A stretch of DNA of 50,936 nt, from assembly GCA_937924145.1 (NCBI GenBank), contig CALDTJ010000110.1, positions 1-50,936 on the forward strand, given 5' to 3'. The stretch comes from an uncultured Saprospiraceae bacterium (lineage in GTDB: Bacteria > Bacteroidota > Bacteroidia > Chitinophagales > Saprospiraceae). Below, piece by piece: positions 12,086-35,543 of this stretch. The position numbers were made by a program, and so were the translations under genes. Numbering within the stretch: position 1 is the stretch's first letter; each line of letters starts with the position of its first letter. Below the pieces are notes generated by a model. That model was given only the letters and a program-made list of their open reading frames with translations, was not told where the DNA came from and made no database searches.

Positions 12086-15000
12086 ATGCCAAACAATTAC
12101 TGGTTTAAGACCTTATTTTTCCTCCTTGCTACCTTTATTGTAGGAAAAGTAGATGCACAAGTAAAATTCAAAGTAGCCCTTTCCCCTGATAGTACTTTCT
12201 ATCAAGTGTCACTCCTTTCCGAGATCGGCCCATTTTTCGCTTCATCACAGAATTTTGTCCCTACCGCTACGGTAACATTGATTGCTCCTACGGGAGAATT
12301 GACACCAGCCTCCATTGCTAATCAAAAAGGGATTTGGTCAGGACCAGACACTTATATTAATCCAGTAGGTGGACTAGATCAGGATTATTTTGTGTTTTCT
12401 CTTAATGGAGCGGTAAATGACATTGTTTTTACCCCTGGCTTAGAGGTTGACTTATTCACTTTTACCAATTCGGGCAATTGTGCGGGTGCGGTAGAGTTGA
12501 TGGATAATGACAATGATCCTTTTAGGGAACAAGACCCTACGGCGAATGTCGGTAATCACATTACGGTTTTTGGTAATGGACAAGGTAATTCCTATGGTGG
12601 GATACACGATCCACGGAGTGCTAACTGTATGGGTTTTCCACCTTGTAATTTAACGATTGGGAGTGTAACAAAAACAGATATTTTGACTTGTGGAGCCGAT
12701 GATGGTAGCATTACAATTAATGCCACAAATGGTACGGGTACCCTCGAATATAGCATCAATAACGGACTTAATTGGTTCACTACCAATACCTTTAATAATT
12801 TAGCGATTGGCAATTATACGATAATTGTGAAAGACGATAATTGTGAACAGACTTATGATACCAATCCCGTGACTATTTTGGAGCCAAATATTGCGGTCAC
12901 CTTGACGGATAGTTTGCCTCCTTCTTGTAATAGTTCTTTGGACGGTCAAATAACGGTTGCTGCCAGTGGTGGAGTAGCCCCTTATGAATATAGTATTAAC
13001 AACGGCGCAAATTGGACTACCAATGGCGCTTTTACTAGTTTAGGCAATGGTATTTTTAATATCAAAGCTAGAAATGTAGATAGTACTTGTGAGACGAGTT
13101 ACCCGAATGCAGTTGTTTTTTCTACTCAAGGCATTAATTTAACCCTTGTCAAAACAGATATTTCGTGTACGAATGGTACGAATGGCACTATTTCTATCAC
13201 TGCGGAAGGAGGAATGGGTAGTTTTCAATACAGTATTGACAATGGTGTAACTTGGTTAGCCTCTGCTAATTTTACAGATTTGGCTGCTGGAAATTATATG
13301 GTGCTTGCAAGAAATAGCAATGGCACCTGTGAAGTCGCTTTTGAAGGCAACCCTGTGGTAATTAGCGAAAGTGCGCTGAATTTTACAGTCACTCCAACTG
13401 ATCCAGATTGTAATGGTGTAGCCGACGGAACCATCAGTATTGATCTTACGGGCGAAACGAGTAGTTTTGAATACACTATTGATGATGGAACGAATTGGGT
13501 AACGAATGCTACATTTTCTAACCTTGATATAGGAGCTTATACCATCAAAGTTAGAAAAGTCGGTGGTACTTGTGAAACAGCTTTCTCTAATAATCCAGTT
13601 GTTTTAGATCGGCAGATGATTAATATTTCTGTTAGCACCTTTGCTGGCGGATGTGATGATGGAATGACGAACAGTATCACGGTAGCTGCATCTGGAGGAA
13701 ATGCTAGTTTCCAATACAGTAAGGATGATGGTGCCACTTGGCAAAACTCTAATATCTTCAATAGTTTAGCCAACGGAGACTATACGATTAAGGTCAGAAC
13801 CACTGATTTATCTTGTGAAACGGCTTTTGTTAATAACCCTGTTTCTTTTGCTTCTAGTGCCATCAATGTTGGTGTTAGTTCCAGTCCTCCTGCTTGCCAT
13901 GATTTATCAAATGGAAGTATCACTGTGACGGCTAATGGTGGAACGGGTAGTTTTATTTATAGTATTGATGGTGGGGCTAATTACTCCAATTTGACCAACT
14001 TTACTGGTTTGGCAAATGGGAACTATAATATTTTTGTCAAAAATGCAGACGGTACCTGTGAAACCGAATATCCAAACAATCCTATTCAGTTTAATACGAC
14101 AGCAATTTCCTTTTCCGTTTCCGAAAATCAAGCATCTTGCTTAGCTGCGACTGATGGGAGTATTTCGATGTTAGGAAACGGAGGATCAGGTAGTTATGAA
14201 TATTCTATTGATAGCGGAATGACTTGGAGTGCGGTCGCTACTCAACAAAATTTAGCTGCCGATTTATACTATGTATTTATTAGAAGTGACAATCAAAACT
14301 GTGAGCTTGAATTTGCTAATAATCCAATAGATTTACGTCCAGATGCTTTGACTATCAGCATTGTTTCGAATACACCTCCTTCTTGTGAAACGGGTAATGA
14401 TGGGAGTTTAGTTTTAGCTGCCGCTGGTGGTGGAAGCACCAATTACCAATATTCGATTGATGATGGAGCGACTTACTCAGGCATGAGTACTTTCCAAAAT
14501 TTATCAACAGGAGATTATAATTTAAAAGCTAAAATAGCAGGAACGGATTGTGAGGTAACTTACGTGAATAATCCAGTTCGAGTTGAGAACTTCAGCTGTG
14601 AACCACCTCCTCCAGTTGATTCTTGCTTTTTGAGATATGTCCTTACGGAAAATGAAGGTGTTTACACTATTTCTTTAGCTACAGATACGACTTGGTTAGG
14701 ATTTTCTGCGACGACTTCTAATGCGCAGGTTTCTATCCGAGTACCAACAGGTGGTTTTTCTATAGCCAATTTCACTAATAAAATCGGAGGGGTTCAATTT
14801 GGGCCAGCAGGTTTTTCTATTAACCCTTCAGAGGCAACGGGTTTTGACTTTTTTACTTTCAATTTACAAGCTACTACCATCAGTATTCCTTATATAAAAG
14901 GAGATACCGTTGAGCTATTTAGTTTTGAAAATAGTGGTACTTGTACAGGTGGTGAAATGTACCTCATTGGTGACGAAGGAGTGAGTGATCCTGGTGTTGC

Positions 15001-18000
15001 TAACACCAATTTTGAGTCACAGATTACGGTAGCAGGTTGGGGTGGTCCCGATGCACCGATTTGTAATTCAAGTGATCCTGTGGAGGTTTGTTTACCACCT
15101 CCGCCTTGTGTAGCTGAATTCGTTTTAGCAGAGAATAATGGAACTTTTACTGTTGGAATGATTCCAGATACTACTTGGGCGGCTCCTTTGAATACGGTAA
15201 ATAGCGCACAGATTACGCTAAGAATGCCAGCTAAGGGCTACCAAATCGAGAATTTCCAAAATGCGAATAGTCAAGTTCAATTTGAGGTAACTAGCCGTTT
15301 AAATAGTCCTGCTGTGGATGTTGGATATGATTACCTGAGTGTTACCTTAAACTCATTTGGGACAACCAATATTCCATTTAGTAAAGGAGTGAAAACCGAC
15401 TTGTTTAGTTTTGAAATCAATGGTGGATGTTCAACTGATAGCATCGCTTTAGTTGGAGATGGCAGTCTGTTTGATTTTCCAAATGATGAGGATGATAACG
15501 TTACGGCTCAAATGACCGTAGCAGGTTGGGGTGGTCCAGACCTACCCGTATGTGTTCAATCGGCTCCAATGCCAATTTGTACTTTAGGTATTGACGGAGT
15601 TACGGTAACCGATGTAACTTTCTGTGGAGCAAGTGATGGTACGATCACAATTACGGCTACTTGTGCAGGAGATCATACTCGATATAGTGTCGATAATGGT
15701 CGATCTTATCATGCTAATCGAACCTTTACGAATTTATCAGCAGGAAATTATTTTATTAGACTATACAATGATTCGACAGACTGTGAGGTGATTTATAATG
15801 CAAATCCAGTAGTTGTCAATGATGGTGCTGCTATCAATTTCACAGCTACGGCTATTGCGCCAACTTGTGCGGATAGTTCCAATGGGTCAATTACCATAGT
15901 AGCGAGTAATGGAAGTGGCAATTTTCAATATAGCATTGATGATGGTAGAATGTGGTCTACTACGGCTACTTTCACTGGTTTGATTAATGGAAATTATAAT
16001 TTAAAAGTCAGTAATTTAGATACGACTTGTATCACGACTTATGATACGACCTTTTTGACAATTAGCAGTTTACCTTGTGATTTTGATTCTGATAATGATG
16101 GAACCCCTGATTTAGCGGAAGACTTGAATATGGATGGAAATTTAGATAATGATAATACAGATGGAGATGAATTTCCAAATTATCTAGATGACGATGATGA
16201 CAATGATGGTATTCTGACAGCACTGGAAGAGGCAGGGCCAAATGATGGAGATGCCAACGGTGACGGTCAACCAGATTGCCTACAAGCCAACGTAGCGACT
16301 ACCCAAGATGATGGTGGGGCTTTCCGAACATTAGAGGTGAGTGGAGATGGAGCAACTTGTGACCGAATTATGGATTTCATCATTCACTCAGAAGGAGATA
16401 TGAGTGAAAATGATCCTAATTATGATTTCCCTTTCCAGTTAAATGCATTTACGATTCCTTGTGGCGGTACCGTTAATGTTCAGTTGTTTTACCACAATGT
16501 AACCAACCTAGCTGATTTTACCTACCGAAAATTTGGCCCAATGACGCCAGGAGGAGCAACTTCCGAATGGTATGATTTTCCAGTGACCATTTCGCAAGTT
16601 GCGATTGGTGGAAATACGATTGGGAGCGTAGCATTTCAGTTGACGGATGGACAACGAGGGGATGCGACGATTGTTGACAATATGATTGTAGATCCAGGGG
16701 GAATTGCAATGGATGTCAACGCAGGAGCAGATTGTGCAATTAGGTATAATCTAGTAAAAACAGGTGAGATCTACGAAGTTAGTCTAACTAGCGATACGAC
16801 CATTTCACCTAATAATATCAATGATTTAGCGATTACCTTAAGAGCGCCAACAGGTATTTTGACAGTAGGCAATATCGTGAATGCCAGTGCGAATGTGCTA
16901 TTTGAATTAGACACCACTTACACTGCACCAACGGAGTCACCTAATTACGACTATTTGGTTTTCAAATTAAGTCCTGCATCGGCTAACACTACTAATATTG
17001 ATATTTTTCAAGACAATACAGAATCATTATTTTCTTTTGAAAATGTCGGTGCTTGCTCCAATGATTCCTTATTTTTAGTAGGAATGGGAGCTGACTTTAC
17101 AGCACCAACTATCAATGGACAAGACATTTCTTCTAGTATCAATATCAATGGTTGGAACGCGCCTACTTGTGTTTCAAATGCTGGAGGTGCTTTATGTTTG
17201 CCTGCTCCAAGAGATACCGTTTTAGTTGATTTATTTGCGGGCTTACCGACGACGATTTGTTTAGACTCGGAGATTCAACTGCCTAATGGAGTTGGAAACA
17301 CCTCCGTATTATTCCAAGGGACGGCAGTAACGGCTGCAACTTCTAATTCAGATAGTTGTGTGCTATTCATGCCGCAAAGTACTTTTACTGGGACCGATTT
17401 TGTGACCGTTGTTTTTTGTGATAATGTGAACTCTAGTATTTGTGATACAACGACTTTTAATATTACGGTCGCAGCTCAACCAACTTGTTTAATCAACTAT
17501 TTTGTAGAAGATTCTTTAGGCAAATACAAGTTTAAGATGGTGAGTGACACCACTTGGAATATGCCACAAAATGAGGTCATTTCTGCCCAATTTACCATTA
17601 GAACCCCTACGGGATCTTTTGAGATGACCAATTTGCAGAATGGTATTGGAGTCGTAGATTTTGATCTACAAACAACAACTTCTCAAGGTGGTTACGACTA
17701 CCTGAATATAGTCTTACAAACGGTCAATACCTTAGATATTCCATTTATAAAAGGAGATACGATTTGTTTATTTAGTTTTGAAAATGGAGGCGCTTGTACC
17801 AATGATAGTCTCTATTTAATTGGTCAAGGCAGTCCTGTTTCTGCTCCGACAGTAGGAGATGAGCCAATTTTCTCGAAGATGGCAGTCCAAGGCTGGGGTG
17901 GAGGCACGACTTCTGTACCTGCTTGTGTGATGGGGACGGGGGTGCCTATTTGCCCAATTACTGCACCTGAAACGCAGACGATCAATCTCACTTTGAATCA

Positions 18001-21000
18001 AGATGAAACGGTAGCAGTATGCATTGATTCCGTTCTACAATTATTAAATAATGTAGGAACAGTCACAATTTGCGATCAAGGGACTAATATTTCAGTAGCA
18101 GTTACGAATAATGATAGTTGTGTAAATATAACTACCGCATCAGATTTCGTAGGAACTGAGACCTTATGTGTAGTACACTGCGATGCCTTCGAAACAGGTC
18201 ATTGTGATACGACTTATTTTATGGTGACGGTCATCGAGCCTACACCAGAACCAGTTACTTGTTTATACGAATACATTATCGAAGAATCGAATGGAGTTCA
18301 TACCGTTCGATTAGCGGTTGATTCGACGATAGCGGCTCCGTTCAATGCGACTAGTTCAATGCTAGTGGCAATTAGAGTGCCGACAACAGGTTTTAATGTA
18401 CCAACCGATAGCATCACTTCATTATTACCTGGTGCTATATTTGAAAATACGTCCAATGGGGTATTTATGGATAATGAAGAGCCTGATTTTGGATATATTT
18501 ATTTTGATATAAATGGTGCAGTCTCTCCTAATTATCAGCAAGGAGATACGTTAGATTTGTTCTCTTTTAGAGTAGAAGGCTGTATAGGTGGTGATATTCA
18601 CCTAGTAGGAACAGGAGCTAATTTTGCAAACCCAATGGTCAATGGAGAAGAAATTACTTCTTATTTAGCGATTGGGGCATTTTTAGCGGATGGCGGTGCG
18701 CCTTCTTGTGTGAATCCAGTAGGGACGACTATTTGTACTCCTGTTGTTCCGCCTACGCCAGCACCACAAGACACTTTACAGTTCGTCTTAGATTTTGAAA
18801 CAGCGGCTACGGTTTGTATAGATTCCGCTATACAATTATTGACCAATGTAGGAACTGCAAGTATTTGCGGACAAGGTACGAATATAACAGTTGGAGTAAC
18901 TAACGGCGATTCTTGTATTACCTTAACCCCAGCTACTAATTTTTCTGGTACTGAAATGCTTTGTGTTGTTCATTGTGATGCAGGAACTCCAGACTATTGC
19001 GACACCACTATTTTGATGGTAACGGTGAATCCAAATGATGGAACACCTCCACCACAACCACCATCAGAAGATACGACTTGTCATATAACTTTTGAATTAG
19101 AATTAGTGGATGGAACCTATACTGTTAGTTTCACACCAGATACAACTATACGGAACGTCATACCTGTAATTCCTAATCCTTTTACCAATTTGATGGAGAT
19201 AACTTTAAGAGCGCCTACGGGCAAATTAAATATAGTCAATCAAGTCGATTTTGGTACTGGAAGAGAATTTGTGTTAAAAAGATTCATCATCAATCCATCA
19301 GAAAGCTTAGGTTACGATTATTTTACTTTTGGTTTGAATGAGAACAACTCAACAACCGTAGATATTTCTTACGTTCAGGGTATTAAAACCGAATTATTTA
19401 CTTTTCAAAATTTTAATTGTGCGTTGGACAGCATCGCTTTAGTCGGAAAAGGAAGTCCGTTTACCACACCATTGATTAGTGATGAAAATATTGAATCTGT
19501 TGCACAAGTGAATAGTGCAAATTTAATTGTTTGTGTTTCGCCAGATGCGATTACGCCACCAGCTTTGGCGTTTTCGTCTACGAATACAGCCCCAACTGCG
19601 GGTGTTTGTAACGATGGAACGATTACGATTACAGCAACGGGTGGAACAGGCATTTACGATTATAGTATTGACGGTGGAAGCACTTGGCAATTCAACGGCA
19701 ACTTCTCTAATTTAGAAAATGGTACTTACCAAACCTTAGTTAGAAGTAGTGATTCTCTTTGTATTGGTACAGCCCAATCGGTCACTTTAAATACGGCAGA
19801 TTGTGGTCAAGTTGGCCCAGTTTGTAATGTTGTTCTTACCAGCATTGACACCGTTAATGCGACTTGTAGTCAACCTGACGGTAGGATTACGATCAATGCA
19901 ACGGGAGATAATTTAGAATACAGTATCAACACTGGCGCAACTTTCCAAAACAGCAATATTTTTGAAAATGTAACTGGTGGTATTTATAATATTGTAGTCC
20001 GAGATTCGGTAGAAACGACCTGTGAGGTCAATCAAACCATCACTTTGAATGGCACCCAATTGCCTGATATTCAAAATGTTATCATTAGTGATTCTGCTGA
20101 ATTTGCAAATGGAGCAGGGATCATCACCATTTTTGCCACAGCTAATTGTGAGGTACAATACAGTATTGATAATGGGCAAACATTCTTCCCTGGCAATTCA
20201 TTTACCACGCTTGGCGTAGGTACTTATAATATCGTTGTGACGGACTGTAGTGGTCTATGTCCAATTAATTATTTGAGTAATCCAATTATAATCGAAGAAC
20301 CACCAGTTTGTACTGTGAATGCAGGAGCGGATAGAACAATTTGTGCAGGTGCAGCGATTGCTTTATCAGCTACTGGCACAGGTTCGACATTCAGTTGGGC
20401 ACCAACCGATGGTTTAAGCTGTACGGATTGTCCAAATCCTATTGCTAATCCAATGACTACGACAACTTATGTGGTGACAAATAATGATGGCAATTGTACG
20501 GCTACAGATACCATCATCGTCAATGTAGCACCAGCGATTACTGCTGATTTTGTCTTTATGACAAGTTGTACTGATCTATCGGTTGTTTTCACGGATAGCT
20601 CTGCTTCTACTGCCAATATTACTGCTTGGTCGTGGGATTTTGGAGATGGAAGTGCATTGAATACTGAGCAAAATCCAAATTATACTTACTTGGCATCTGG
20701 CAGTTATACCGTCAGTTTGACAACTACAATTGAGGGAGATTGCGAAAATACAATTTTTAAAACAGTAGAAGTTGGAAATGGATTAATGGGTACGATCAGC
20801 GATGATTTATCTATTTGTACAGGTGATTGTACCACTTTGATGGCATCGGGTGGAACGAATTATGCATGGGCAGCATCACCAGATTTGAGCGCCTTGGATA
20901 TTCCAAATCCAATAGCATGTCCAACTCAGACAACAACTTATTACGTCACCATTTCTGATGATAATGGATGTTCAACGATGGATAGTGTCACGATTACGAT

Positions 21001-24000
21001 TGATGCACCGACCCTTGGAGTTTCTGCCTCGGGCGCAGCTTGCGATCAAGACAATGGTTCGATTACCGTTTTCGCATCTTTCCCGAATGGTGGCCCACTT
21101 GAATTCCAAATAGTAGATAATGATGAATGGTTCACAGAAAATAGCTTCACAGGTTTAGCGTCAGGTACTTATAACGTTCGGATTAGAACGGCAGACGGTG
21201 GTTGTATCACTTCTTTTGATGGCAATCCAGTGATAATTAATCAAGTGCAAGGCCCAACGATTGACGATGTTTCTGCAAAGAATCCAACGGAATGTAATAC
21301 TGCCACTGGCGAAATTTTATTGACGGCTTCTGGGTCTAATGCCTTGATTTATAGTATTGATGATGGGACCACTTGGAGTCCTTCTCCTTCATTTACGGAT
21401 TTAAATGAGGGTGTTTATGATATTCGCATCGCTTATGCCGATACTTCTTGTTTGACTCCTATTAGAATGGTGGAATTAGTTGCACCAACTGCGCCAAATA
21501 TTCTTGGTGCTACAAAAGAAGATCCTTCTACTTGTGAAAGTACGGACGGTCGAATTTTTGTTTCGGTTGAAAATGGAGCGAGCCAACCATTTGAATATAG
21601 TATTGACGGGACAAATTGGCAAACAGACAGTGTAATAAATAATTTAGCTGCTGGAACCTATGCTGTTTTTGTAAGGTATAGCGACGAATCCTGTGTAACT
21701 GAATTTAATACACCAGTAACATTACAACCGGGTGCTGGACCAAATATCTTATTTGCCTTTGGCGAAGACCCAACGACTTGTGAAAGTATGGACGGTCAGA
21801 TTACCGTTTCAGTAGAGGAAGTGACTGGGAGAGCATTTGAGTACAGTTTAGATGGCATTGACTGGCAGGCAGAGCATGTATTCGATAGTTTAGCTGCTGG
21901 CCAATACGATATTTTTGTTAGATACGATGATGGTACTTGTGTGACTCAGTGGGATATTCCAGTAGAAATACAACCTGCTGCTGCACCATTTATCAACGAT
22001 GTGGCGAGTATCAATCCAACAGGGTTTGACTTAGCAGATGGAGAGATTTTTATCAATGCTTTTGGCAGTAGCGATATTGAATATAGTATTGACAATGGAG
22101 ATAACTGGCAAACAAATCCAGATTTTGTAGGCTTAGATACAGGTAGTTACACCATTCTAGTTCGATATACTGATGGAAGTTGTGAAACGCCTTATTTAGG
22201 AAATGGCGGTGGTCCAGTTATTCTAAGAGTAGGAGATTGCTTGAGATTTATTGAAGTCATTGGAAATAATCCACAAGGTTGTGGATCGAATGATGGAAGT
22301 ATTTTCACTATCGTAGAACCATTTGGTAATGTTGAATACAGCATCAATAATGGAGCAGATTGGCAAGATTTTGAAGTTTTTGAAAATCTCGGCGCAGGGA
22401 CTTACAACATTTTAGCTCGTCGAACGGATATTGCTTGTCAAATTGATACCACCATTACGTTAGGAGAAGGCGAAGATTTAGAGATATTTAGTGTAGACGC
22501 TATTGACAAAGATCTTTGTAATAATTTCGGTGGGGAGATTTTTATTAATACCAATATTTTTAATAATATCGAATTTAGTATCGACAATGGAGCGAATTGG
22601 CAAGCCAATAATTTATTTAGTAATGTAGATACTGGCACTTACACCATTTTGGCAAGAAGCCTAGATTTAATTTGTCAAGCAACTTGGGATCAACCTGTCG
22701 TGGTTCGACCAGTACCAACTGCGGATATTACAAATGTTTTGGTTGGAAACCCAACGAGTTGTGGCAATTTAGACGGTTCCATTATTATAGAAACAAACTT
22801 TGGTTTTAATACTGAATATAGTATTGATAATGGCGCAACTTGGCGTTTTGATAATCAATTTTTGAACCTACCTTCTGGGAATTATACTGTAAAAATAAGA
22901 ACGGGAAGTTGTGAAGTAGACTACGTCAATAACCCAGTTAATTTGGGTGCAGCGAATGGTTTTACCGTGGTAGATCCTATTCCAAACGCAGCGACTTGTA
23001 CTGGCACTTTGATGTCATTGTCCGTTACCTTAAGTGATAATATTAGTAGTTGGTTGGTCAATAATGGAAGCATTACTAACCCTAATATAAATGGCGCTAC
23101 GCTAACTTTTGACGCCGTAGTCGAAGGTTTATTTAATGAATATGAGTTAACCTTCACAAATTCAATAGGTTGTGAAGTGACTGAATCCTTTGTTATTTTC
23201 CAAGCGGATGATACCGAAGCAGACTTCGTAGTGATTGAGCCTTACTGTAAAGAAATGGAAGTTTCGCTTCTATTTACAGGTACAGCAACACCGATGGCGA
23301 ACCTAATTTGGGAAGTTGATGGCGGTGTACTAGTTTCTAGTTCACCTGCTACTGATACGGAACCAGCAGGCAACGAAATCGTCGTTCGGTGGGACAACGA
23401 AGGTAGTCGATTAATCAAATTAACGGTTGATGATGGTGGCTGCATAGACGACGAATACGAAAGTATTTTTGTCAGAAAATTACCACTAGCCAATGCTGGT
23501 GAAGATGTGTCCATCTGTATGAGTAATTGTACGCAATTGGAAGGAACTGGAACGGGTGTTTGGTACTCATGGAGTCCTGCAACGGGACTAAGTTCGCCAG
23601 ATGTACAAAATCCAATCGCTTGTCCAACCGAAACAACGACTTATACCTTGACGGTCATGAGTGCGGACGGTTGTGTATCGACGGATGAAGTAACGGTCAA
23701 TGTAGAAACGAATTTCATTACGACAGGCCCAGATGTTACGATTTGTGAAGGCGAATCGGCAAATTTAAGTGTGACAGGTGCGAACAATTATACTTGGACT
23801 TCTGCCATGACCTTAGATAATCCAACGTCCCCCAATCCAGTAGCCACACCTGTAGAAACAACGACTTATAGTGTCTTTTCTATGAATGAAAATGGTTGTA
23901 TGGATACGGCAACGGTAACGGTCTTTGTGAATCCATTGCCAGAAGCAGTCGCTTGCGAGGATAAGACGATTTGTAGAGGAGATAGCATTCAATTGATTGT

Positions 24001-27000
24001 GACCACTTTTGCCCAATACAGTTGGAGTCCAACGAATACTTTAATCAATCCAACGAGTGGAACGCCAATCGCATTCCCTACGGAAACAACCACTTATACG
24101 GTAACTGTTACCGATGAATTTGGCTGTACAGATACAGACGAAGTAGTCGTATTTGTGAATACACCACCAACGGTTACAGCAAGTGCGGATGTGGATATTT
24201 GTGCGGGTGCATCCACGAGATTAAATGCGTCGGGTGCTAATGCCTATGTTTGGTCACCAATCGTAGGATTAAGTAATCCAAACTTATCCAATCCAATTGC
24301 AACGCCTTTAGTTACAACGACTTATACGGTAACTGGAACAGATGCCAACGGCTGTACGCACACGGATCAAGTGACCGTAAATGTGGTAGAAAACGCTGGC
24401 ATCTCAGCAGGTTTGCCAACTACAATCTGCGAAGGCGAAACGACTCAATTAGTAGCAACAGGTGGCACAAATTACCAATGGTCACCAGCAACGGGCTTAA
24501 ATAGCACCAACATCGCTAACCCAATAGCTAATCCGACGGTAACGACGACTTACACTTTGACGGGTGTCAGTGCCAATGGTTGTCCATCTATTTCTACCTT
24601 AACGGTTACGGTTTTACCAAAACCAGAACCAGTGGCTTGTGAGGATAAAATGATTTGTCTAGGCGATAGCATCCAATTGATTGTGACCACTTTTGCCCAA
24701 TACAGTTGGAGTCCAACAAATTCTCTAATTAATCCAACGAGTGGAACACCAACCGCTTTTCCAACAGAAACAACTACTTATACGGTTACTGTGACGGACG
24801 AAAATGGCTGTACCAATACTGACGAAGTTACTGTCTTTGTAAATAATCAGAGTGCAATTGCTTTAGGTCCAGATATTACCCTTTGTGAAGGTGGTCCAGT
24901 ACCACTAGATGCAGGTACAGGTATTGCCTACGAATGGATTCCAAGCACTGGTTTGAGTGATCCAACGATTAGAAATCCGATTGCTACTGTAAATAGCACG
25001 ATTACTTATACAGTTTTAGTGACGAACCAGAGTGGTTGTATTGGTAGAGATGAAATCACGATTACCGTGAATGGTGCGCCGAATGCAGATGCTGGCCCTC
25101 CAGTGGTAATCTGCCCAGGCGAAACGGGTCAATTACAGGCATCAGGCGGAGTGAGTTACCAATGGAGTCCAACGGATGGATTGAGTAATCCAAATATCGC
25201 AAATCCATTTGTTACCACTGACCGAGTAACGACTTATCAAGTGACTGTGACCGATGAATTTGGTTGTACCTCAACGGATGAAACTTTAGTAGCAGTCTCT
25301 TTACCATTAATGATAGATCCTGTGATTACCGATGCCACTTGTTGTGGAACGGGCGGTATGGCAGCATTGAACGTTTCAGGTGGTTTTGGTAATGCAACTT
25401 TTGAGTGGTCGCCCAATGTATCGACTACCAATAGTGCGACTAACCTAACCCCAGGTTTTTATAAAGTGGTCATCGAAGATGCTGAAAGATGTGGATTAGT
25501 TTTCACTTTTGAAATAAAAGAAGATTGCAACGGTTGTCCAGATATGTTCGCTGAAAATGAGCGATGTATCAACGATACGTCCAATACAGAAAGAATCTGT
25601 TTACCAATCGCTTTAGAAGATATTGGTAATTACGAAATATTAGTTGATGGAAATGATTACAATCCAGATCACGGTTGTGATTTTGAGAACTTGACCGCTT
25701 ATTCTTATGCCTTGGTAGAAGGGCAGGGGACAACGGGCATGTACAGAGTCGAAAACTGGGAAGTCAATGGTCAAATGTACGCAACGGAAGTAGAAACCAT
25801 GCAAGAATTGACCAATTGGATGAATACCGTAGACCCTACTGGAAACTGGATCAATAACTCCTCAATTGTAACGATTATTGGTGGAAACCCTAATAACGCT
25901 TACGGTACGATGAAGGTGATTCAATTAACCAAATGGGTAGAAACGATGCTTCAACCTGATGTAACAGGCGTGGCGACGAGTACGGTTCTAGAAATAGATG
26001 TAACTGGTTTGACAGACCCGAGAACAATCATTATTACCAATGAATTGACTTGTTGTTCAGATACCATTATCCTAAGACGATGTGGTCAGGCACAACCTTG
26101 TGTAGAAGAAGTCATTGCCCAAAATCAATTTAATGAAAGTATTACTTGTGGCGAAACGGCTAGTATTTGTCTAGACATTCCATTCAGCAATATTAACAAC
26201 TTTGAGGTAGTGGCAAATGACAATCTTTATGCAGGAGAAATCAAGGCTTGTAATTTCGATTCGATGTTTGCCTACACTTACTTCACTTTACCGGGAAGAG
26301 GTGCGGCTGGCCCTTATCGAATTAACTCCTGGTTGATTGATGGACAAATGAATTCAGGGATGTTTAACGACCTCGGTGATTTTGTCGCATTGATGAATCA
26401 AATAGACCCATCAGGAAATTGGATTTTAGATGAATCAACTTTGACCCTGCAAGGTGGAAAATCTACTACCGACTACGGTGAAATCAAAATCGAACAAATC
26501 GCTACGGGTTCTATTGCCACTTTAGAAATCAATTCTAACCTCATTCCAATGGGCACGGAATTGACTTTCACAAATGGCAATTACGAAGTATTATTCATTA
26601 ATAAAAATACAGGTTGTCAAGATCGGATTTTAGTCAATGTGTCTTGTGATGATACCCAAACGCCAATTGATACTACGATGAATCCTGTGGATACGATGAT
26701 TACGCCAATTGACACGACGACGAATCCTGTAGATACGATGGTCACGCCAATTGACACGACGATGAATCCTGTGGATACGATGGTCACGCCAGTAGATACC
26801 ATGACGAATCCTGTGGACACGATGGTTACGCCAGTTGATACCACGACGAATCCTGTGGACACGATGGTCACGCCAGTTGATACTACGATGAACCCTGTGG
26901 ATACGATGACTGAAATATCTTGTGATTTCCTCACCGATGATGTCTTATTTGCTACGGTGAATCGCTGTGACTCGATGGTTCAGTTCTGTTTAGATATTCC

Positions 27001-27991
27001 TTATGCGACGATCAATGATTATCGAATTTATATTGATGGACAAGTTTATGGCGGTGCTTTAAGTAGTTGTGGTACAAATACTTATGTAGAAGTAGGAGTA
27101 GGCGGCTATAATTTCAAATTTGAAAATCTAGTAACCAATTGCCAAGATAGCATCATCCTAGCTGTCACCTGCGCTACGAACGCAAGAGAAGAAATAATTG
27201 AATTGGTAGAAGGCGATACGATGATCTATTGTCCTCAATCGGAGAATCTAGTCGGAGATATTATTTCCATCGAAAATACTTGTCCAGCCGAGTCGGGTAC
27301 GATTGCTACTGTCGAATTAGATACCGAAGATTTCTGTGTGAATGTAGTTGGTTTAGTGGAAGGAGAGGAAAGTGCTTGTTTTGTAGTCTGTGATGCCAAT
27401 GGCGTTTGTGATACGACCAATGTAACGATTCTAGTAACGCCAAAATCGGTAGAAACGCCTATAGCCAACTTAGATATCGATACAACGGAGCAATTCTCTC
27501 CAATCACAATAGATGTCTTAGCCAATGACAGCATTTTTGGAACATTGGAAAATATGGAAATCCTAGAAAAACCACAAAATGGTACAGCAGTCTTCAATGC
27601 GGACAATACCATTACCTATACGCCAGACGAAACGTTCTGTAATTCAGTAGCACCAGATTTCATCATGTATGGCATTTGTAATGAAAATGGCTGTGATACC
27701 GCTATGGTAGAAATTTTAGTTCCATGTACGACCTTAGAAATCATGAACGGATTTTCTCCAAACAATGATGGCATCAACGACTTCTTCACCGTCAAAGGCA
27801 TTGAAGCATTCCCAGAAAATGAAGTGCAAATCTTTAACCGTTGGGGAACACTAGTCTTCAAACAACAAGGCTACAAGAACAGATGGGATGGTACTTTTGA
27901 TAATCAACTCTTGCCAGATGGTACGTACTTCTACTTAATTACGGTAGGCGAAGGAGAGAAATATTCTGGCTTTGTTCAGATTAATAGATAA
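12086..27991 (+). CDS. Giant (5301 aa) mosaic cell-surface protein with a T9SS type-B (gliding-motility-associated) C-terminal sorting domain; SprB-like adhesin class
   Basis: A single uninterrupted ORF in the track. It has a signal peptide (MPNNYWFKTLFFLLATFIVGKVDAQ) and about 21 SprB-like ~80-aa repeats of the form C..DG.I.....GG.....Y.YSID.G..W......F..L..G.Y...V.....C. It also has 7 copies of a ~155-aa module, an Asp-rich TSP3-like segment, a PKD domain, and 10 repeats of ~72-76 aa (C.G....L.A.G...Y.WSP..GLS....NPIA.P..TTTY.VT...GC). Near the C-terminus are two full copies plus a truncated third copy of a ~180-aa Cys-rich module and a 14-aa x6 linker. The C-terminus NGFSPNNDGINDFFTVKGIEAFPENEVQIFNRWGTLVFKQQGYKNRWDGTFDNQLLPDGTYFYLITVGEGEKYSGFVQINR is typical of the CHU_C / type-B CTD. 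Confidence 0.9.
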   Translation: MPNNYWFKTLFFLLATFIVGKVDAQVKFKVALSPDSTFYQVSLLSEIGPFFASSQNFVPTATVTLIAPTGELTPASIANQKGIWSGPDTYINPVGGLDQDYFVFSLNGAVNDIVFTPGLEVDLFTFTNSGNCAGAVELMDNDNDPFREQDPTANVGNHITVFGNGQGNSYGGIHDPRSANCMGFPPCNLTIGSVTKTDILTCGADDGSITINATNGTGTLEYSINNGLNWFTTNTFNNLAIGNYTIIVKDDNCEQTYDTNPVTILEPNIAVTLTDSLPPSCNSSLDGQITVAASGGVAPYEYSINNGANWTTNGAFTSLGNGIFNIKARNVDSTCETSYPNAVVFSTQGINLTLVKTDISCTNGTNGTISITAEGGMGSFQYSIDNGVTWLASANFTDLAAGNYMVLARNSNGTCEVAFEGNPVVISESALNFTVTPTDPDCNGVADGTISIDLTGETSSFEYTIDDGTNWVTNATFSNLDIGAYTIKVRKVGGTCETAFSNNPVVLDRQMINISVSTFAGGCDDGMTNSITVAASGGNASFQYSKDDGATWQNSNIFNSLANGDYTIKVRTTDLSCETAFVNNPVSFASSAINVGVSSSPPACHDLSNGSITVTANGGTGSFIYSIDGGANYSNLTNFTGLANGNYNIFVKNADGTCETEYPNNPIQFNTTAISFSVSENQASCLAATDGSISMLGNGGSGSYEYSIDSGMTWSAVATQQNLAADLYYVFIRSDNQNCELEFANNPIDLRPDALTISIVSNTPPSCETGNDGSLVLAAAGGGSTNYQYSIDDGATYSGMSTFQNLSTGDYNLKAKIAGTDCEVTYVNNPVRVENFSCEPPPPVDSCFLRYVLTENEGVYTISLATDTTWLGFSATTSNAQVSIRVPTGGFSIANFTNKIGGVQFGPAGFSINPSEATGFDFFTFNLQATTISIPYIKGDTVELFSFENSGTCTGGEMYLIGDEGVSDPGVANTNFESQITVAGWGGPDAPICNSSDPVEVCLPPPPCVAEFVLAENNGTFTVGMIPDTTWAAPLNTVNSAQITLRMPAKGYQIENFQNANSQVQFEVTSRLNSPAVDVGYDYLSVTLNSFGTTNIPFSKGVKTDLFSFEINGGCSTDSIALVGDGSLFDFPNDEDDNVTAQMTVAGWGGPDLPVCVQSAPMPICTLGIDGVTVTDVTFCGASDGTITITATCAGDHTRYSVDNGRSYHANRTFTNLSAGNYFIRLYNDSTDCEVIYNANPVVVNDGAAINFTATAIAPTCADSSNGSITIVASNGSGNFQYSIDDGRMWSTTATFTGLINGNYNLKVSNLDTTCITTYDTTFLTISSLPCDFDSDNDGTPDLAEDLNMDGNLDNDNTDGDEFPNYLDDDDDNDGILTALEEAGPNDGDANGDGQPDCLQANVATTQDDGGAFRTLEVSGDGATCDRIMDFIIHSEGDMSENDPNYDFPFQLNAFTIPCGGTVNVQLFYHNVTNLADFTYRKFGPMTPGGATSEWYDFPVTISQVAIGGNTIGSVAFQLTDGQRGDATIVDNMIVDPGGIAMDVNAGADCAIRYNLVKTGEIYEVSLTSDTTISPNNINDLAITLRAPTGILTVGNIVNASANVLFELDTTYTAPTESPNYDYLVFKLSPASANTTNIDIFQDNTESLFSFENVGACSNDSLFLVGMGADFTAPTINGQDISSSININGWNAPTCVSNAGGALCLPAPRDTVLVDLFAGLPTTICLDSEIQLPNGVGNTSVLFQGTAVTAATSNSDSCVLFMPQSTFTGTDFVTVVFCDNVNSSICDTTTFNITVAAQPTCLINYFVEDSLGKYKFKMVSDTTWNMPQNEVISAQFTIRTPTGSFEMTNLQNGIGVVDFDLQTTTSQGGYDYLNIVLQTVNTLDIPFIKGDTICLFSFENGGACTNDSLYLIGQGSPVSAPTVGDEPIFSKMAVQGWGGGTTSVPACVMGTGVPICPITAPETQTINLTLNQDETVAVCIDSVLQLLNNVGTVTICDQGTNISVAVTNNDSCVNITTASDFVGTETLCVVHCDAFETGHCDTTYFMVTVIEPTPEPVTCLYEYIIEESNGVHTVRLAVDSTIAAPFNATSSMLVAIRVPTTGFNVPTDSITSLLPGAIFENTSNGVFMDNEEPDFGYIYFDINGAVSPNYQQGDTLDLFSFRVEGCIGGDIHLVGTGANFANPMVNGEEITSYLAIGAFLADGGAPSCVNPVGTTICTPVVPPTPAPQDTLQFVLDFETAATVCIDSAIQLLTNVGTASICGQGTNITVGVTNGDSCITLTPATNFSGTEMLCVVHCDAGTPDYCDTTILMVTVNPNDGTPPPQPPSEDTTCHITFELELVDGTYTVSFTPDTTIRNVIPVIPNPFTNLMEITLRAPTGKLNIVNQVDFGTGREFVLKRFIINPSESLGYDYFTFGLNENNSTTVDISYVQGIKTELFTFQNFNCALDSIALVGKGSPFTTPLISDENIESVAQVNSANLIVCVSPDAITPPALAFSSTNTAPTAGVCNDGTITITATGGTGIYDYSIDGGSTWQFNGNFSNLENGTYQTLVRSSDSLCIGTAQSVTLNTADCGQVGPVCNVVLTSIDTVNATCSQPDGRITINATGDNLEYSINTGATFQNSNIFENVTGGIYNIVVRDSVETTCEVNQTITLNGTQLPDIQNVIISDSAEFANGAGIITIFATANCEVQYSIDNGQTFFPGNSFTTLGVGTYNIVVTDCSGLCPINYLSNPIIIEEPPVCTVNAGADRTICAGAAIALSATGTGSTFSWAPTDGLSCTDCPNPIANPMTTTTYVVTNNDGNCTATDTIIVNVAPAITADFVFMTSCTDLSVVFTDSSASTANITAWSWDFGDGSALNTEQNPNYTYLASGSYTVSLTTTIEGDCENTIFKTVEVGNGLMGTISDDLSICTGDCTTLMASGGTNYAWAASPDLSALDIPNPIACPTQTTTYYVTISDDNGCSTMDSVTITIDAPTLGVSASGAACDQDNGSITVFASFPNGGPLEFQIVDNDEWFTENSFTGLASGTYNVRIRTADGGCITSFDGNPVIINQVQGPTIDDVSAKNPTECNTATGEILLTASGSNALIYSIDDGTTWSPSPSFTDLNEGVYDIRIAYADTSCLTPIRMVELVAPTAPNILGATKEDPSTCESTDGRIFVSVENGASQPFEYSIDGTNWQTDSVINNLAAGTYAVFVRYSDESCVTEFNTPVTLQPGAGPNILFAFGEDPTTCESMDGQITVSVEEVTGRAFEYSLDGIDWQAEHVFDSLAAGQYDIFVRYDDGTCVTQWDIPVEIQPAAAPFINDVASINPTGFDLADGEIFINAFGSSDIEYSIDNGDNWQTNPDFVGLDTGSYTILVRYTDGSCETPYLGNGGGPVILRVGDCLRFIEVIGNNPQGCGSNDGSIFTIVEPFGNVEYSINNGADWQDFEVFENLGAGTYNILARRTDIACQIDTTITLGEGEDLEIFSVDAIDKDLCNNFGGEIFINTNIFNNIEFSIDNGANWQANNLFSNVDTGTYTILARSLDLICQATWDQPVVVRPVPTADITNVLVGNPTSCGNLDGSIIIETNFGFNTEYSIDNGATWRFDNQFLNLPSGNYTVKIRTGSCEVDYVNNPVNLGAANGFTVVDPIPNAATCTGTLMSLSVTLSDNISSWLVNNGSITNPNINGATLTFDAVVEGLFNEYELTFTNSIGCEVTESFVIFQADDTEADFVVIEPYCKEMEVSLLFTGTATPMANLIWEVDGGVLVSSSPATDTEPAGNEIVVRWDNEGSRLIKLTVDDGGCIDDEYESIFVRKLPLANAGEDVSICMSNCTQLEGTGTGVWYSWSPATGLSSPDVQNPIACPTETTTYTLTVMSADGCVSTDEVTVNVETNFITTGPDVTICEGESANLSVTGANNYTWTSAMTLDNPTSPNPVATPVETTTYSVFSMNENGCMDTATVTVFVNPLPEAVACEDKTICRGDSIQLIVTTFAQYSWSPTNTLINPTSGTPIAFPTETTTYTVTVTDEFGCTDTDEVVVFVNTPPTVTASADVDICAGASTRLNASGANAYVWSPIVGLSNPNLSNPIATPLVTTTYTVTGTDANGCTHTDQVTVNVVENAGISAGLPTTICEGETTQLVATGGTNYQWSPATGLNSTNIANPIANPTVTTTYTLTGVSANGCPSISTLTVTVLPKPEPVACEDKMICLGDSIQLIVTTFAQYSWSPTNSLINPTSGTPTAFPTETTTYTVTVTDENGCTNTDEVTVFVNNQSAIALGPDITLCEGGPVPLDAGTGIAYEWIPSTGLSDPTIRNPIATVNSTITYTVLVTNQSGCIGRDEITITVNGAPNADAGPPVVICPGETGQLQASGGVSYQWSPTDGLSNPNIANPFVTTDRVTTYQVTVTDEFGCTSTDETLVAVSLPLMIDPVITDATCCGTGGMAALNVSGGFGNATFEWSPNVSTTNSATNLTPGFYKVVIEDAERCGLVFTFEIKEDCNGCPDMFAENERCINDTSNTERICLPIALEDIGNYEILVDGNDYNPDHGCDFENLTAYSYALVEGQGTTGMYRVENWEVNGQMYATEVETMQELTNWMNTVDPTGNWINNSSIVTIIGGNPNNAYGTMKVIQLTKWVETMLQPDVTGVATSTVLEIDVTGLTDPRTIIITNELTCCSDTIILRRCGQAQPCVEEVIAQNQFNESITCGETASICLDIPFSNINNFEVVANDNLYAGEIKACNFDSMFAYTYFTLPGRGAAGPYRINSWLIDGQMNSGMFNDLGDFVALMNQIDPSGNWILDESTLTLQGGKSTTDYGEIKIEQIATGSIATLEINSNLIPMGTELTFTNGNYEVLFINKNTGCQDRILVNVSCDDTQTPIDTTMNPVDTMITPIDTTTNPVDTMVTPIDTTMNPVDTMVTPVDTMTNPVDTMVTPVDTTTNPVDTMVTPVDTTMNPVDTMTEISCDFLTDDVLFATVNRCDSMVQFCLDIPYATINDYRIYIDGQVYGGALSSCGTNTYVEVGVGGYNFKFENLVTNCQDSIILAVTCATNAREEIIELVEGDTMIYCPQSENLVGDIISIENTCPAESGTIATVELDTEDFCVNVVGLVEGEESACFVVCDANGVCDTTNVTILVTPKSVETPIANLDIDTTEQFSPITIDVLANDSIFGTLENMEILEKPQNGTAVFNADNTITYTPDETFCNSVAPDFIMYGICNENGCDTAMVEILVPCTTLEIMNGFSPNNDGINDFFTVKGIEAFPENEVQIFNRWGTLVFKQQGYKNRWDGTFDNQLLPDGTYFYLITVGEGEKYSGFVQINR
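16076..16279 (+). other. Asp-rich calcium-binding (thrombospondin type-3-like) segment of the giant protein
   Basis: CDFDSDNDGTPDLAEDLNMDGNLDNDNTDGDEFPNYLDDDDDNDGILTALEEAGPNDGDANGDGQPDC, with reiterated DxDxDG motifs. Confidence 0.65.
20535..20775 (+). other. PKD domain of the giant protein
   Basis: ADFVFMTSCTDLSVVFTDSSASTANITAWSWDFGDGSALNTEQNPNYTYLASGSYTVSLTTTIEGDCENTIFKTVEV, containing the WDFGDG...H/YTY motif. Confidence 0.8.
26660..26911 (+). repeat. In-frame tandem repeat of six 42-bp units (twelve 21-bp half-units) encoding TP(I/V)DT(T/M)x-NPVDTMx
   Basis: Translation: TPIDTTMNPVDTMITPIDTTTNPVDTMVTPIDTTMNPVDTMVTPVDTMTNPVDTMVTPVDTTTNPVDTMVTPVDTTMNPVDTMT. The antisense ORF at 26617-26934 in the track is its mirror image. 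Confidence 0.95.
27733..27988 (+). other. T9SS type-B C-terminal sorting domain of the giant protein
   Basis: The last ~85 aa, from LEIMNGFSPNNDGINDFF to GFVQINR. Confidence 0.85.
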
Positions 27992-31719: not shown

Positions 31720-32691
31720 ATGGTCAAAAACATACTACTTATACTTGCCTGCTGCACGTCTTTCACCTTGTTTGCTCAGCAACCCAGTAATTATAGCTTA
31801 TATATGTTCAATAAGTTTTCGTTTAACCCTGCTTATGCTGGGATGGACAACTCTTTGAGTTTTACTGGAATCTACAGGAATCAATGGTCTGGACTAACAA
31901 ACAGCCCAATTACCCAAAATCTCAATGTTCACATGCCTTTATATATTCTCGGAGGTGGTATTGGCATAAATGTTGAGAATGACAAGTTAGGTCTTGAGCA
32001 AAACCTGCTTGCATCACTTTCCTACAATTTTCAACTCCCCGTTGGAAAAATTGGGATTTTGGCCATAGGTGCAAGCGGTGGAATTTTTCAAAAGACACTA
32101 GATGGTTCTCGGATTTTAACACCCGATGGTCTATACGAAGGAACTACAATAAATCATAACGATGGTTTATTATTACCTACCGCTGAGGAAAGTGCTATTA
32201 CCCCCACCTTTAATGCAGGTATTTATTTTAAAACTGAAACATTTGAGGTTGGTTTATCAACCATTAATATACAGGAACCAGTCATTACCAATGACTTCTT
32301 TTCGACCACTTTGAGCCGCAACTATTTTTTTAATGTAGCGTACCAATTTGACCTGTTAAGGACAGTAACTGTTCACCCTTCGCTCTTAGTCAAATCAGAC
32401 TTTGTGGAGACCCAAACAGAAGTATCAGTTTTATTCAAATATAATGACAATATATTCGTAGGTGGTTCGTTTAGAGGATACAATACGAATACAGCAGATG
32501 CGGCTAGTTTAATCGTAGGTTTGAATTTAAGTGAGAAGATTACATTGGCTTATGCTTATGACTACACTTTATCAGATTTAAACTTAGTTAGCAACGGAAG
32601 TCATGAGCTGATGATTAATTATAACTTAGGAAGAGAAATTGGCAAAGGCAAACTACCTAAGATTATTTTCAACCCAAGATATATTGAATAA
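31720..32691 (+). CDS. porP: T9SS membrane protein of the PorP/SprF family
   Basis: 323 aa. It has a signal peptide (MVKNILLILACCTSFTLFAQQ) and the family N-terminal motif YSLYMFNKFSFNPAYAG. The sequence is beta-barrel-like and ends ...NPRYIE. It sits directly upstream of gldKLMN, like porP in the Porphyromonas porPKLMN operon. Confidence 0.85.
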   Translation: MVKNILLILACCTSFTLFAQQPSNYSLYMFNKFSFNPAYAGMDNSLSFTGIYRNQWSGLTNSPITQNLNVHMPLYILGGGIGINVENDKLGLEQNLLASLSYNFQLPVGKIGILAIGASGGIFQKTLDGSRILTPDGLYEGTTINHNDGLLLPTAEESAITPTFNAGIYFKTETFEVGLSTINIQEPVITNDFFSTTLSRNYFFNVAYQFDLLRTVTVHPSLLVKSDFVETQTEVSVLFKYNDNIFVGGSFRGYNTNTADAASLIVGLNLSEKITLAYAYDYTLSDLNLVSNGSHELMINYNLGREIGKGKLPKIIFNPRYIE

Positions 32692-32820
32692 GAGGAGAGA
32701 ATAGAGAGCAGAGAATAGAGATATGTGACTTAATGATTCGTATTTTATAGACAAATCTCAAGTACTTTTTATAAGACATCTCTTCTCTCTCAATGAAATG
32801 ATCTCGCCTCTCTGTTCTGC
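32692..32820. repeat. Word-built imperfect inverted repeat (GAGA-rich arm / TCTC-rich arm) just after the porP stop
   Basis: The left arm gaggagagaatagagagcagagaatagagat (32692-32723) opposes the right arm catctcttctctctcaatgaaatgatctcgcctctctgttctgc (32777-32820). Confidence 0.6.
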
Positions 32821-33333
32821 TTAAATGTAAGACAGTTTGCAAAAGTTTGAAATAAGTTATAATTAGCAGCTTTTTTTTGAAATGCTAAGTACTAAGAATT
32901 GAAAAATGGGCGTTTTAATTTCGATTAAAAAAATTAAGGACTAAAAACCCTTTGTTTTTTAATCAAAATATGAATTCGCTGATGTAAATAAAGACAAGTT
33001 TTATAATAGGAATCAAAGCAAACTACTGTCAGTAAAAAACAACTTGGTCGTTTTTTACGGTTTTTAAATGACAGAAAAAGCGGTTAATCTCCTAATTGTC
33101 GCCAATCATCAACTTTAATTTTTTTTTATCCTTTGAAAAAACACTTAACCGAGTAACTTTACGGTCGTTTTTCGGGCATGAAAGTTGGACGGAATTATTT
33201 TTGATTTATTTTCTCTGGATTGTCCTAAAATAAAATAACTACTTTACAGTCAGTTATTTATAAATTTAGAACAAACAAAATAAGTTAAACCTAATTTTTT
33301 CTGTCACATAGCCCAAACTAATTATAGGTAATT

Positions 33334-34635: not shown

Positions 34636-34656
34636 TTGAATTATAAAAATATTAAA

Positions 34657-34696
34657 ATGGTACGAACGATTTGCACAATAATCTTCGTACCATTTT
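34657..34696 (+). terminator. Hairpin after gldK (terminator or processing-type)
   Basis: aaatggtacgaa / ttcgtaccattt forms a 12-bp perfect stem with a 14-nt loop, then tagtt. Confidence 0.5.
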
Positions 34697-34702
34697 AGTT
34701 AA

Positions 34703-34792: not shown

Positions 34793-34929
34793 ACCAACTA
34801 AACAAACCCATCGTAATCGGCAAAAATTTGTTTTTGTCAACGATTAAAAAACTGTTACTTTTTAAGAAAAAAACGTTTTTAAAGTGACAATGTAACAATT
34901 TTAATAACCTACAATAACATTCAAAAGTT

Positions 34930-35526: not shown

Positions 35527-35543
35527 TAAGATTGTATGATTGC

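Follow-up and report, generated by a model that had tools for sequence, protein, structure and literature searches.

An unannotated extracellular module with a predicted cohesin-like fold in type IX-secreted adhesins of Saprospiraceae

The stretch of DNA treated here, the window, is 50,936 nucleotides long and comes from an uncultured Saprospiraceae bacterium (contig CALDTJ010000110.1 of assembly GCA_937924145.1). It carries a giant open reading frame (ORF) in which a unit of about 155 amino acids (aa) occurs seven times. This unit is a genuine extracellular domain which is annotated in no database. Its predicted fold, a beta jelly roll, has high confidence, and the solved structures nearest to it are cohesin modules. 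A family of surface proteins, most of them from Saprospiraceae-type Bacteroidota, has the unit as its N-terminal domain and combines it with at least four alternative C-terminal domains. The module is best seen as a new family among the jelly-roll binding modules represented by cohesins and carbohydrate-binding modules (CBMs), located in adhesins of Saprospiraceae which are secreted by a secretion system of type IX (T9SS). Because homology to cohesins is undetectable at the sequence level, we call the module cohesin-like in fold and not a member of the cohesin family.

The seven copies and their predicted fold

An earlier note on this stretch described seven copies of a Cys-bounded module which it could not assign to a family, the first copy directly following a signal peptide. 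All seven intervals lie in frame within the one ORF, and leave-one-out profile hidden Markov models (HMMs) recover every copy, with E-values (scaled to a database of 1e6 sequences) of 2e-9 for the divergent copy 1 and 1e-24 to 1e-45 for the others. Pairwise BLASTP among the copies gives identities of 25-38% and E-values from 4e-3 to 6e-39. The repeats are thus where they were said to be, and copy 1 does come directly after a signal-peptide-like start, read from the sequence as MPNNYWFKTLFFLLATFIVGKVDA/QVKF... When the copies were properly aligned the conservation did not vanish; all the shared motifs listed earlier were found, and nine columns are invariant (D21, T23, P41, L99, F100, F102, C108, P125 and C158; position numbers here and below are those of copy 3). 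The term Cys-bounded suits copies 2-6, which begin and end with Cys. It does not suit copy 1, which lacks the first Cys, or copy 7, which lacks the last conserved one. Copy 1 represents an N-terminal subtype with two Cys, the equivalents of C108 and C158. Copies 2 and 3 are linked by LPPPP. A profile made from the seven copies finds no eighth copy in the giant protein, and with a deeper, 87-sequence profile the other ORFs of the window give no match.

The module could not be placed in any family described so far. Neither Pfam nor NCBIfam has a model which matches the seven copies or their relatives, so the significant Pfam match which would have contradicted the earlier note was not obtained, and sequence searches of the PDB with the copies, with the 7-sequence profile and with the 87-sequence profile gave no credible match. 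The best database matches, YfaZ (E = 0.16) and the interferon-activable protein p202 (E = 0.014), were judged to be due to chance. Literature searches for cohesin-like modules in Bacteroidota or T9SS proteins gave nothing relevant, and no paper on this module was found.

The earlier note had proposed folding one copy and searching with the structure. The AlphaFold2 model of copy 3, built on an 87-sequence alignment, is all-beta with ten predicted strands and has a mean predicted local distance difference test score (pLDDT) of 94.8 and a predicted template modelling score of 0.89. When this model was compared to the PDB with Foldseek, 29 of the 30 best matches were cohesins (E 1.3e-4 to 1.2e-2, template modelling (TM) score 0.35-0.58, probability mostly 1.00), belonging to at least six organisms (Clostridium acetobutylicum, Pseudobacteroides, C. 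perfringens, Ruminococcus, Acetivibrio and C. thermocellum). Next in the list came CBM3 and CBM2 with E-values of 1e-2 to 6e-2. A Foldseek search against viral structures gave nothing informative.

A family of surface proteins and a recurrent neighbouring gene

A word-indexed search found four orthologue fragments only. When 1.84 billion cluster representatives were searched exhaustively with an HMM, 582 clusters (defined at 50% identity) were obtained at E <= 1e-3, 393 of them at E <= 1e-10. The 153 best hits contain 301 domain instances, with 1-7 copies per protein, and the first copy begins at or before aa 60 in 113 of the 116 proteins which have an intact N-terminus. The C-terminal end varies: among the 153 best hits 58 end in a T9SS type B C-terminal domain (CTD), 42 in a T9SS type A CTD, 11 in an unannotated domain of 250 aa which we call domain X, and seven in IPTL-CTERM, the remainder being fragments or others. 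Many members are proteins of 270-290 aa in which a signal peptide and a single module are followed by a T9SS type A CTD; in them the module is covered by no Pfam or NCBIfam model, and the record names of members are generic ('hypothetical', 'T9SS type A sorting domain-containing'). Other members have tandem arrays of 2-7 copies, in some cases with linkers of 3-10 aa. In the 42 family proteins which were scanned the companion domains are all of the adhesin type (SprB, Big_9, cadherin-like, TSP3, SdrD_B) and a recognised catalytic domain is found in none.

Among GTDB species genomes a search run from a tight 5-sequence alignment gave 52 loci, nearly all in metagenome-assembled genomes (MAGs) assigned to Saprospiraceae, Lewinellaceae or Saprospirales. 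Three of the loci are in bins of other phyla, two in Caldilineae (Chloroflexota) and one in Gemmatales. Paralogous module-bearing genes adjoin one another at some loci. Some members without a recognised anchor, including members on a 1.7-Mb Caldilineaceae contig, end in (A/Y)LYLP(L/I)(V/I) (L046:2165-2824, L046:3905-6451, P0073, P0079), which may be another C-terminal sorting signal.

The small anchored paralogue, a protein of 280 aa with one cohesin-like module and a T9SS type A CTD, has a constant neighbour. At every locus which has it, about 31 of the 52, the gene for a large protein lies immediately upstream on the same strand. More than 1,000 C-terminal residues of the large protein are visible at most of these loci; they contain up to 43 DxDxDG motifs and end in domain X, and Pfam TSP3_bac matches two of the three examples scanned (1e-18 to 1e-19). 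This order, a TSP3 giant ending in domain X and then the 280-aa paralogue, is seen in Saprospiraceae MAGs (L001-L037, e.g. L006:1-8477 and L020:1-8492), and the gene pair is also present on two contigs assigned to Caldilineae, one of them of 1.7 Mb. Further downstream of the single-domain paralogue, within a few kb, 12 loci have a gene for a CbiA/ParA-type P-loop (Wzc-like) protein of about 745 aa, and eight loci have a downstream gene for a Wzx-type flippase (Polysacc_synt).

Domain X comprises the last 250 aa or so of these proteins; it is conserved and ends in ...EQLP (e.g. L008:3078-3857, L006:3064-3843, L053:4493-9658, P0171-P0290). Its first part is beta-rich (…AIVDWVFVELRS…LLQRDGDVVD.DG…RHRNHLGVMT…DFT). 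It is followed by a duplicated calcium-loop-like segment of the form DxNxDG...NDxD..IFFNVL, which reads WGGNADGN..I.YQG…DRD.IFF.VF.DP.NT in the first copy and GY…DTNMDG..IYQG..ND.D..IFFNVL.HP.N in the second. Domain X has no Pfam match at E <= 10, no NCBIfam match and no PDB sequence match, and hhalign against the CelS dockerin aligned ten residues with a probability of 0.9%. The clusters with domain X number at least 2,974, Spirosoma being represented among them; many have domain X only, and the cargo N-terminal to it is varied (PKD, F5/8C, SdrD_B, DUF11, Kazal, TSP3 or none). Its position is the extreme C-terminal slot, like that of known sorting domains. Domain X may serve as a new domain for anchoring, sorting or docking, perhaps simply as a fourth kind of anchor. 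In 11 proteins it is joined to N-terminal modules, and a complete example of 1,721 aa consists of a signal peptide, a cohesin-like module, 46 DxDxDG motifs and domain X. There is no domain X in the window.

Conserved residues and proposed function

Conservation was analysed over 217 domain instances, 210 full-length ones from relatives and the seven copies of the window, aligned to the family profile. The following positions stand out: Q35 (88%), T37 (82%), P41 (89%), G43 (81%), P68 (96%), E70 (86%), D75 (93%), Y76 (99%), F100 (97%), F102 (98%), N104 (87%), C108 (99%), D120 (88%), F122 (87%), N126 (81%), N131 (83%) and G140 (93%). The earlier note had pointed to two blocks, LFSFEN-G-C and AGWGGPD, as signs of a functional site and not of a simple spacer. 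That the module is more than a spacer is upheld by its autonomy, its occurrence in single-domain secreted proteins, its N-terminal position and its fold, which is that of known binding modules. The blocks themselves are poor evidence for a functional site. LFSFEN-G-C corresponds in the model of copy 3 to predicted strand 7 and the following turn, with F100 and F102 probably being core residues and C108 probably disulfide-bonded, and AGWGGPD is specific to a subfamily, being kept only in the internal copies of the giant protein and in close relatives; family-wide only G140 and G142 (78%) remain of it.

Better candidates for a functional site are two conserved loops, AP.E.P..DY, which connects strands 5 and 6, and D-P-F-x-x-P-N-S...N.G.Q, which connects strands 8 and 9, each 70-96% conserved throughout the family; the internal copies of the giant protein have diverged in the latter loop. 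The periodicity of the strands in the sequence suggests that Q35 and T37 in strand 3 and Y76 in strand 6 lie on the outer face and not towards the hydrophobic core; strands 3 and 6 of cohesins are part of the sheet which binds the dockerin. The Cys residues have a pattern of their own: C108 and the C-terminal Cys co-occur in the two-Cys N-terminal subtype (95 sequences), and internal copies add C1 and C149, both of which are present in 92 sequences and one alone in 17. From this co-occurrence we infer one universal disulfide and a second one in internal copies.

The O-glycosylation sequon of Bacteroidota is D-(S/T)-(A/I/L/M/T/V). It occurs 63 times in the product of 12086-27991 against 30 +/- 5 in shuffled sequence, is in phase in all seven modules (DTT or DST at aa 35, 867, 1028, 1570, 1821, 2079 and 2352) and is also found at one shared position (CDTT) in all three Cys-rich modules which separate copies 4-7. 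Since the sequon is enriched and kept in phase, the DTT(W/I) signature of the module may be a glycosylation site.

It is established that SprB-type proteins have their C-terminus fixed at the outer membrane by the type B CTD. The giant protein ends in such a domain and all seven copies are within its first 2,500 residues, for which reason the copies would occupy the tip and the distal part of a long filament attached to the outer membrane by its C-terminal end. We propose that each copy is a docking or binding module, so that the seven copies would make the giant protein a multivalent, scaffoldin-like adhesin. A protein ligand appears more likely than a glycan because of the cohesin-like fold, the tandem arrays with short Pro-rich linkers and the single-module paralogues anchored to cells, and also because no enzyme fusions were seen. 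We give this proposal, a multivalent scaffold-like adhesin with a protein as the favoured ligand, about an even chance of being correct.

Several observations weigh against it. The likeness to cohesins is one of fold only, with a TM-score of about 0.5, a root mean square deviation above 5 Å and 5-14% identity. The Pfam Cohesin model gives no match at E <= 10 with the seven copies or at E <= 1 with ten relatives. With hhalign the probability is 0.1% both for cohesin 1ANU and for a CipA-type profile of seven sequences, this profile being shallow (it contains only close CipA relatives), so that the hhalign comparison is a weak one and remote homology is possible. The conservation looks largely structural: most of the positions with the highest values belong to predicted strands or are Cys or Gly. 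It should also be noted that CBM3 and CBM2, which follow the cohesins in the Foldseek list, have the same superfold, and that the Wzc-like and Wzx-type neighbours give a weak hint of a link to exopolysaccharide.

The latter two points would fit a glycan binder of the CBM2/CBM3 kind. By means of it the filament would adhere to surfaces made of polysaccharide, for instance the cell walls of algae or bacteria or the exopolysaccharide or sheath of the organism itself, with the seven copies providing avidity; a location at the tip and multivalency would suit an adhesin for a repetitive ligand. Cohesins match better than CBMs, however (E 1e-4 against 1e-2, TM about 0.5 against about 0.35), and no Pfam CBM model matches. 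CBMs are usually fused to enzymes, whereas the scan of 42 proteins showed no fusion to a glycoside hydrolase or any other enzyme. We regard a glycan binder as possible and rather unlikely. A passive structural element, either a rigid bead of the stalk or a self-association domain, would require the conservation to reflect constraints of folding and disulfides only. The preponderance of strand, Cys, Gly and Pro positions among the best-conserved residues agrees with this, as do the stalk-type repeats making up the remainder of the giant protein and the glycosylation-type sequon in phase in every copy. Stalk repeats are not normally situated at the N-terminal tip, where the module is in nearly all intact family members, nor are they normally found as stand-alone anchored single-domain proteins, and the two long conserved loops would be unusual for a mere spacer. 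We consider a passive role very unlikely.

A sharper version of the docking proposal is that the module binds domain X in the manner of a cohesin-dockerin pair. The 280-aa anchored paralogue would then tether the giant TSP3-repeat proteins to the cell, proteins with N-terminal modules and a C-terminal domain X would chain head-to-tail, and the seven-copy protein would be the scaffoldin. This is consistent with the gene for a domain X protein being directly upstream wherever the small anchored paralogue occurs, with the presence of the same gene pair in the two Caldilineae-assigned contigs, with the 1,721-aa protein in which the module and domain X occupy opposite ends, with the 11 proteins resembling X-dockerin scaffoldins in having both, and with the internal duplication of a calcium-loop-like segment in domain X. 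Domain X shows, on the other hand, no significant similarity to dockerins by Pfam, PDB profile search or hhalign; it occupies the slot of a sorting domain and may be just another anchor; and the window is without it. As it is far more widespread than the module, domain X cannot exist solely as the partner of the module. The pairing seems to us improbable. The same must be said of the more general idea that Saprospiraceae and some Caldilineae possess a non-cellulosomal, calcium-dependent docking system of module and domain X analogous to cohesin-dockerin, a system in which the head-to-tail chains would form an extracellular matrix or sheath and the multi-copy proteins would be scaffoldins on a filament of the gliding-motility type; we find it doubtful.

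The reading which we prefer is thus still that of a docking or binding module, used in several copies on one filament. Cohesin-type docking modules underlie the assembly of cellulosomes and are much used in synthetic biology; to our knowledge they are poorly understood outside cellulolytic Firmicutes. Saprospiraceae are abundant in wastewater sludge and on algae and are known for attaching to cells and polymers. The present analysis defines a sizeable unannotated family with a predicted cohesin fold, placed in scaffoldin-like arrays at what would be the exposed tip of type IX-secreted adhesins, and this family is a concrete target for studying how Saprospiraceae stick to things. Should the modules dock partner proteins, this would point to a modular assembly of surface complexes in Bacteroidota and would yield new orthogonal docking pairs. 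Should their ligands be glycans, the modules would form a new CBM family. In both cases the module family, and domain X, merit a database entry.

The giant protein, its surroundings and known systems

The coordinates of the features are collected in Table 1. Pfam finds SprB repeats (PF13573, E 1.1e-65, nine stretches), PKD, Ig_7, Big_9 and CHU_C in the giant protein, and NCBIfam finds a T9SS type B sorting domain and choice-of-anchor U. The protein thus combines SprB repeats with a C-terminal TIGR04131/CHU_C domain, the combination by which SprB-like type B adhesins are recognised. An internal HMM counts about 21 SprB-type repeats of 80 aa (aa 202-838, 1180-1333, 2506-2748 and 2986-3633). In the Asp-rich segment the whole-protein Pfam matches at E <= 0.01 include neither TSP3_bac nor Dockerin_1, and a lax Pfam scan of aa 1369-1549 gave no match.

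Table 1. Location of the features of the giant gene and of the T9SS core genes in the window
Feature	Residues (aa)	Position	Strand	Evidence and remarks
Giant ORF, SprB-like T9SS cell-surface adhesin	5,301 in total	12086..27991	+	ORF list, translation, Pfam, NCBIfam
Signal-peptide-like N-terminus	1-24	12086..12157	+	read from sequence: hydrophobic core, then VDA/Q
Copy 1	25-181	12158..12628	+	leave-one-out HMM E = 2e-9; 87-sequence family profile 1.6e-38
Eight SprB-type repeats of ~80 aa	202-838	12689..14599	+	internal repeat HMM; Pfam PF13573
Copy 2	847-1002	14624..15091	+	leave-one-out HMM, family profile; internal subtype, four Cys
Copy 3	1008-1165	15107..15580	+	AlphaFold2 model, Foldseek; the copy modelled
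Two SprB-type repeats	1180-1333	15623..16084	+	internal repeat HMM
Asp-rich segment, four DxD/NxD/NG calcium-loop-like motifs	1331-1398	16076..16279	+	motif scan alone
Choice-of-anchor U domain	1443-1541	16412..16708	+	NCBIfam NF041766, E = 2.3e-11, 44.4 bits against a cut-off of 32
Copy 4	1550-1704	16733..17197	+	leave-one-out HMM, family profile
Cys-rich module 1, predicted Ig/cadherin-like	1705-1800	17198..17485	+	internal HMM; homologous to modelled module 2
Copy 5	1801-1956	17486..17953	+	leave-one-out HMM, family profile
Cys-rich module 2, predicted Ig/cadherin-like	1957-2058	17954..18259	+	AlphaFold2 pLDDT 92.1, seven strands; the one modelled
Copy 6	2059-2217	18260..18736	+	leave-one-out HMM, family profile
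Cys-rich module 3, predicted Ig/cadherin-like, with Pro-rich linker	2218-2331	18737..19078	+	internal HMM
Copy 7	2332-2483	19079..19534	+	leave-one-out HMM, family profile; HMM envelope to aa 2491
T9SS type B C-terminal sorting domain	5218-5301	27737..27988	+	CHU_C 1.2e-28; TIGR04131 4.9e-20
T9SS core genes porP/sprF, gldK-like, gldL, gldM, gldN		31720..38497	+	Pfam

The three Cys-rich modules between copies 4-7 are in the number and the places given in the earlier note, which had put their length at about 90 aa; they are 96, 102 and 114 aa long. An internal HMM shows them to be mutually homologous. The model of module 2 matches dystroglycan, RET cadherin-like, Rib and protocadherin domains in Foldseek (TM 0.5-0.7), and Pfam gives sub-threshold matches only (Big_3_5 0.022, Cadherin_5 0.04, Ig_SIBA-E_3rd 0.047). 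They are predicted to be immunoglobulin (Ig)/cadherin-like sandwiches spacing the last four copies. In relatives a Cys-rich insert often comes immediately after a cohesin-like module, and the two therefore form a recurring pair.

The C-terminal part of the giant protein has another module of about 180 aa which occurs twice (25565-26680; aa 4494-4675 and 4686-4865). The two are 28% identical over 176 aa (E = 1.4e-26), and there is a possible partial third copy from 26957; Pfam at E <= 1 over aa 4272-5071 found nothing credible on these modules. Between positions 26660 and 26908 there is a 42-nt tandem repeat (5.9 copies, 88% matches) encoding (TP[IV]DT[TM]xNPVDTM[IV])n, a Thr/Pro-rich linker which is dense in the D-(S/T)-(A/I/L/M/T/V) glycosylation sequon.

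The sole PorP/SprF gene of the window is located 3.7 kb 3' of the giant gene and heads gldK-L-M-N. These core genes encode the machinery for secretion and anchoring, and their Pfam matches are PorP_SprF (2e-58), the FGE-sulfatase fold (GldK-like, 4e-44), GldL_N (8e-25), GldM domains and GldN (7e-73). The first ORF 3' of the giant gene (28832-29428) has no Pfam match. The 1.5 kb on the 5' side of the giant gene (10591-12085) contains no ORF of at least 100 aa and no Rfam match; in the equivalent space of a related metagenome contig (L056) there are genes for GDPD, a TonB-dependent receptor, FecR and an extracytoplasmic function (ECF) sigma factor. Scans of the whole window gave no tRNA and no Rfam match. 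At 2-4486 the minus strand encodes another large secreted protein, longer than 1,480 aa, which starts at 4453 and is cut off by the left edge of the window. A PKD domain and six or more repeats of about 50 aa, C.G..F.FN...L..SG.YRDTL.AANGCDSFIVLT, are present in it, and no cohesin-like module is. The minus strand at 44130-45233 encodes a protein of 367 aa whose sorting domain is of T9SS type A (Por_Secre_tail, 1.3e-13) and whose N-terminal part is otherwise unannotated.

As a whole the giant protein is like SprB of Flavobacterium johnsoniae and GhpA of Aureispira (Saprospiraceae), giant filament adhesins of T9SS type B: it exceeds 5,000 aa, has SprB repeats as well as Ig-like ones, ends in a type B CTD and is encoded in a neighbourhood with gldKLMN. 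GhpA has been described with a distal N-terminal adhesive region on a stem of Ig repeats, and the paper, which deals with ixotrophy, never mentions cohesin (bioRxiv 10.1101/2024.01.29.577165). That the giant protein is the Aureispira grappling hook GhpA itself was rejected; it has no sequence match to the GhpA chains in the PDB, and the described architecture differs. The module resembles the choice-of-anchor domains of NCBIfam in being a domain near the N-terminus paired with several C-terminal sorting signals. It differs from them in that it matches no existing choice-of-anchor model; NF041766 covers another segment of the protein. The name choice of anchor denotes a pattern of distribution and not a function.

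CBM3 and CBM2 have the same beta-sandwich superfold and a similar size and are second-tier Foldseek matches; the structural match is weaker, there is no Pfam CBM hit, and in the proteins examined the module is never on an enzyme. The closest comparison is with cohesins (PF00963; CipA Coh2 1ANU, CaCohA2 6KGE, ScaB 4UMS). The differences are considerable, as no sequence or profile similarity is detected and the module has conserved Cys pairs and long conserved loops which cohesins do not have. Its hosts are aerobic gliding Bacteroidota with T9SS anchoring, whereas cohesin hosts are Firmicutes with SLH or sortase anchoring, and there are no dockerin-bearing enzymes and no cellulolytic context around the module. 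What the two have in common is the size of 140-160 aa and the predicted all-beta jelly roll, which in cohesins has nine strands in about 140-150 residues, the use both of tandem arrays on Pro-rich linkers and of single modules on cell-surface anchors, and the adjoining genes for several module proteins, as in scaffoldin clusters. The proteins with N-terminal modules and a C-terminal domain X, together with the adjoining genes for anchored single-module proteins, are in their layout like the scaffoldins which end in X-dockerin.

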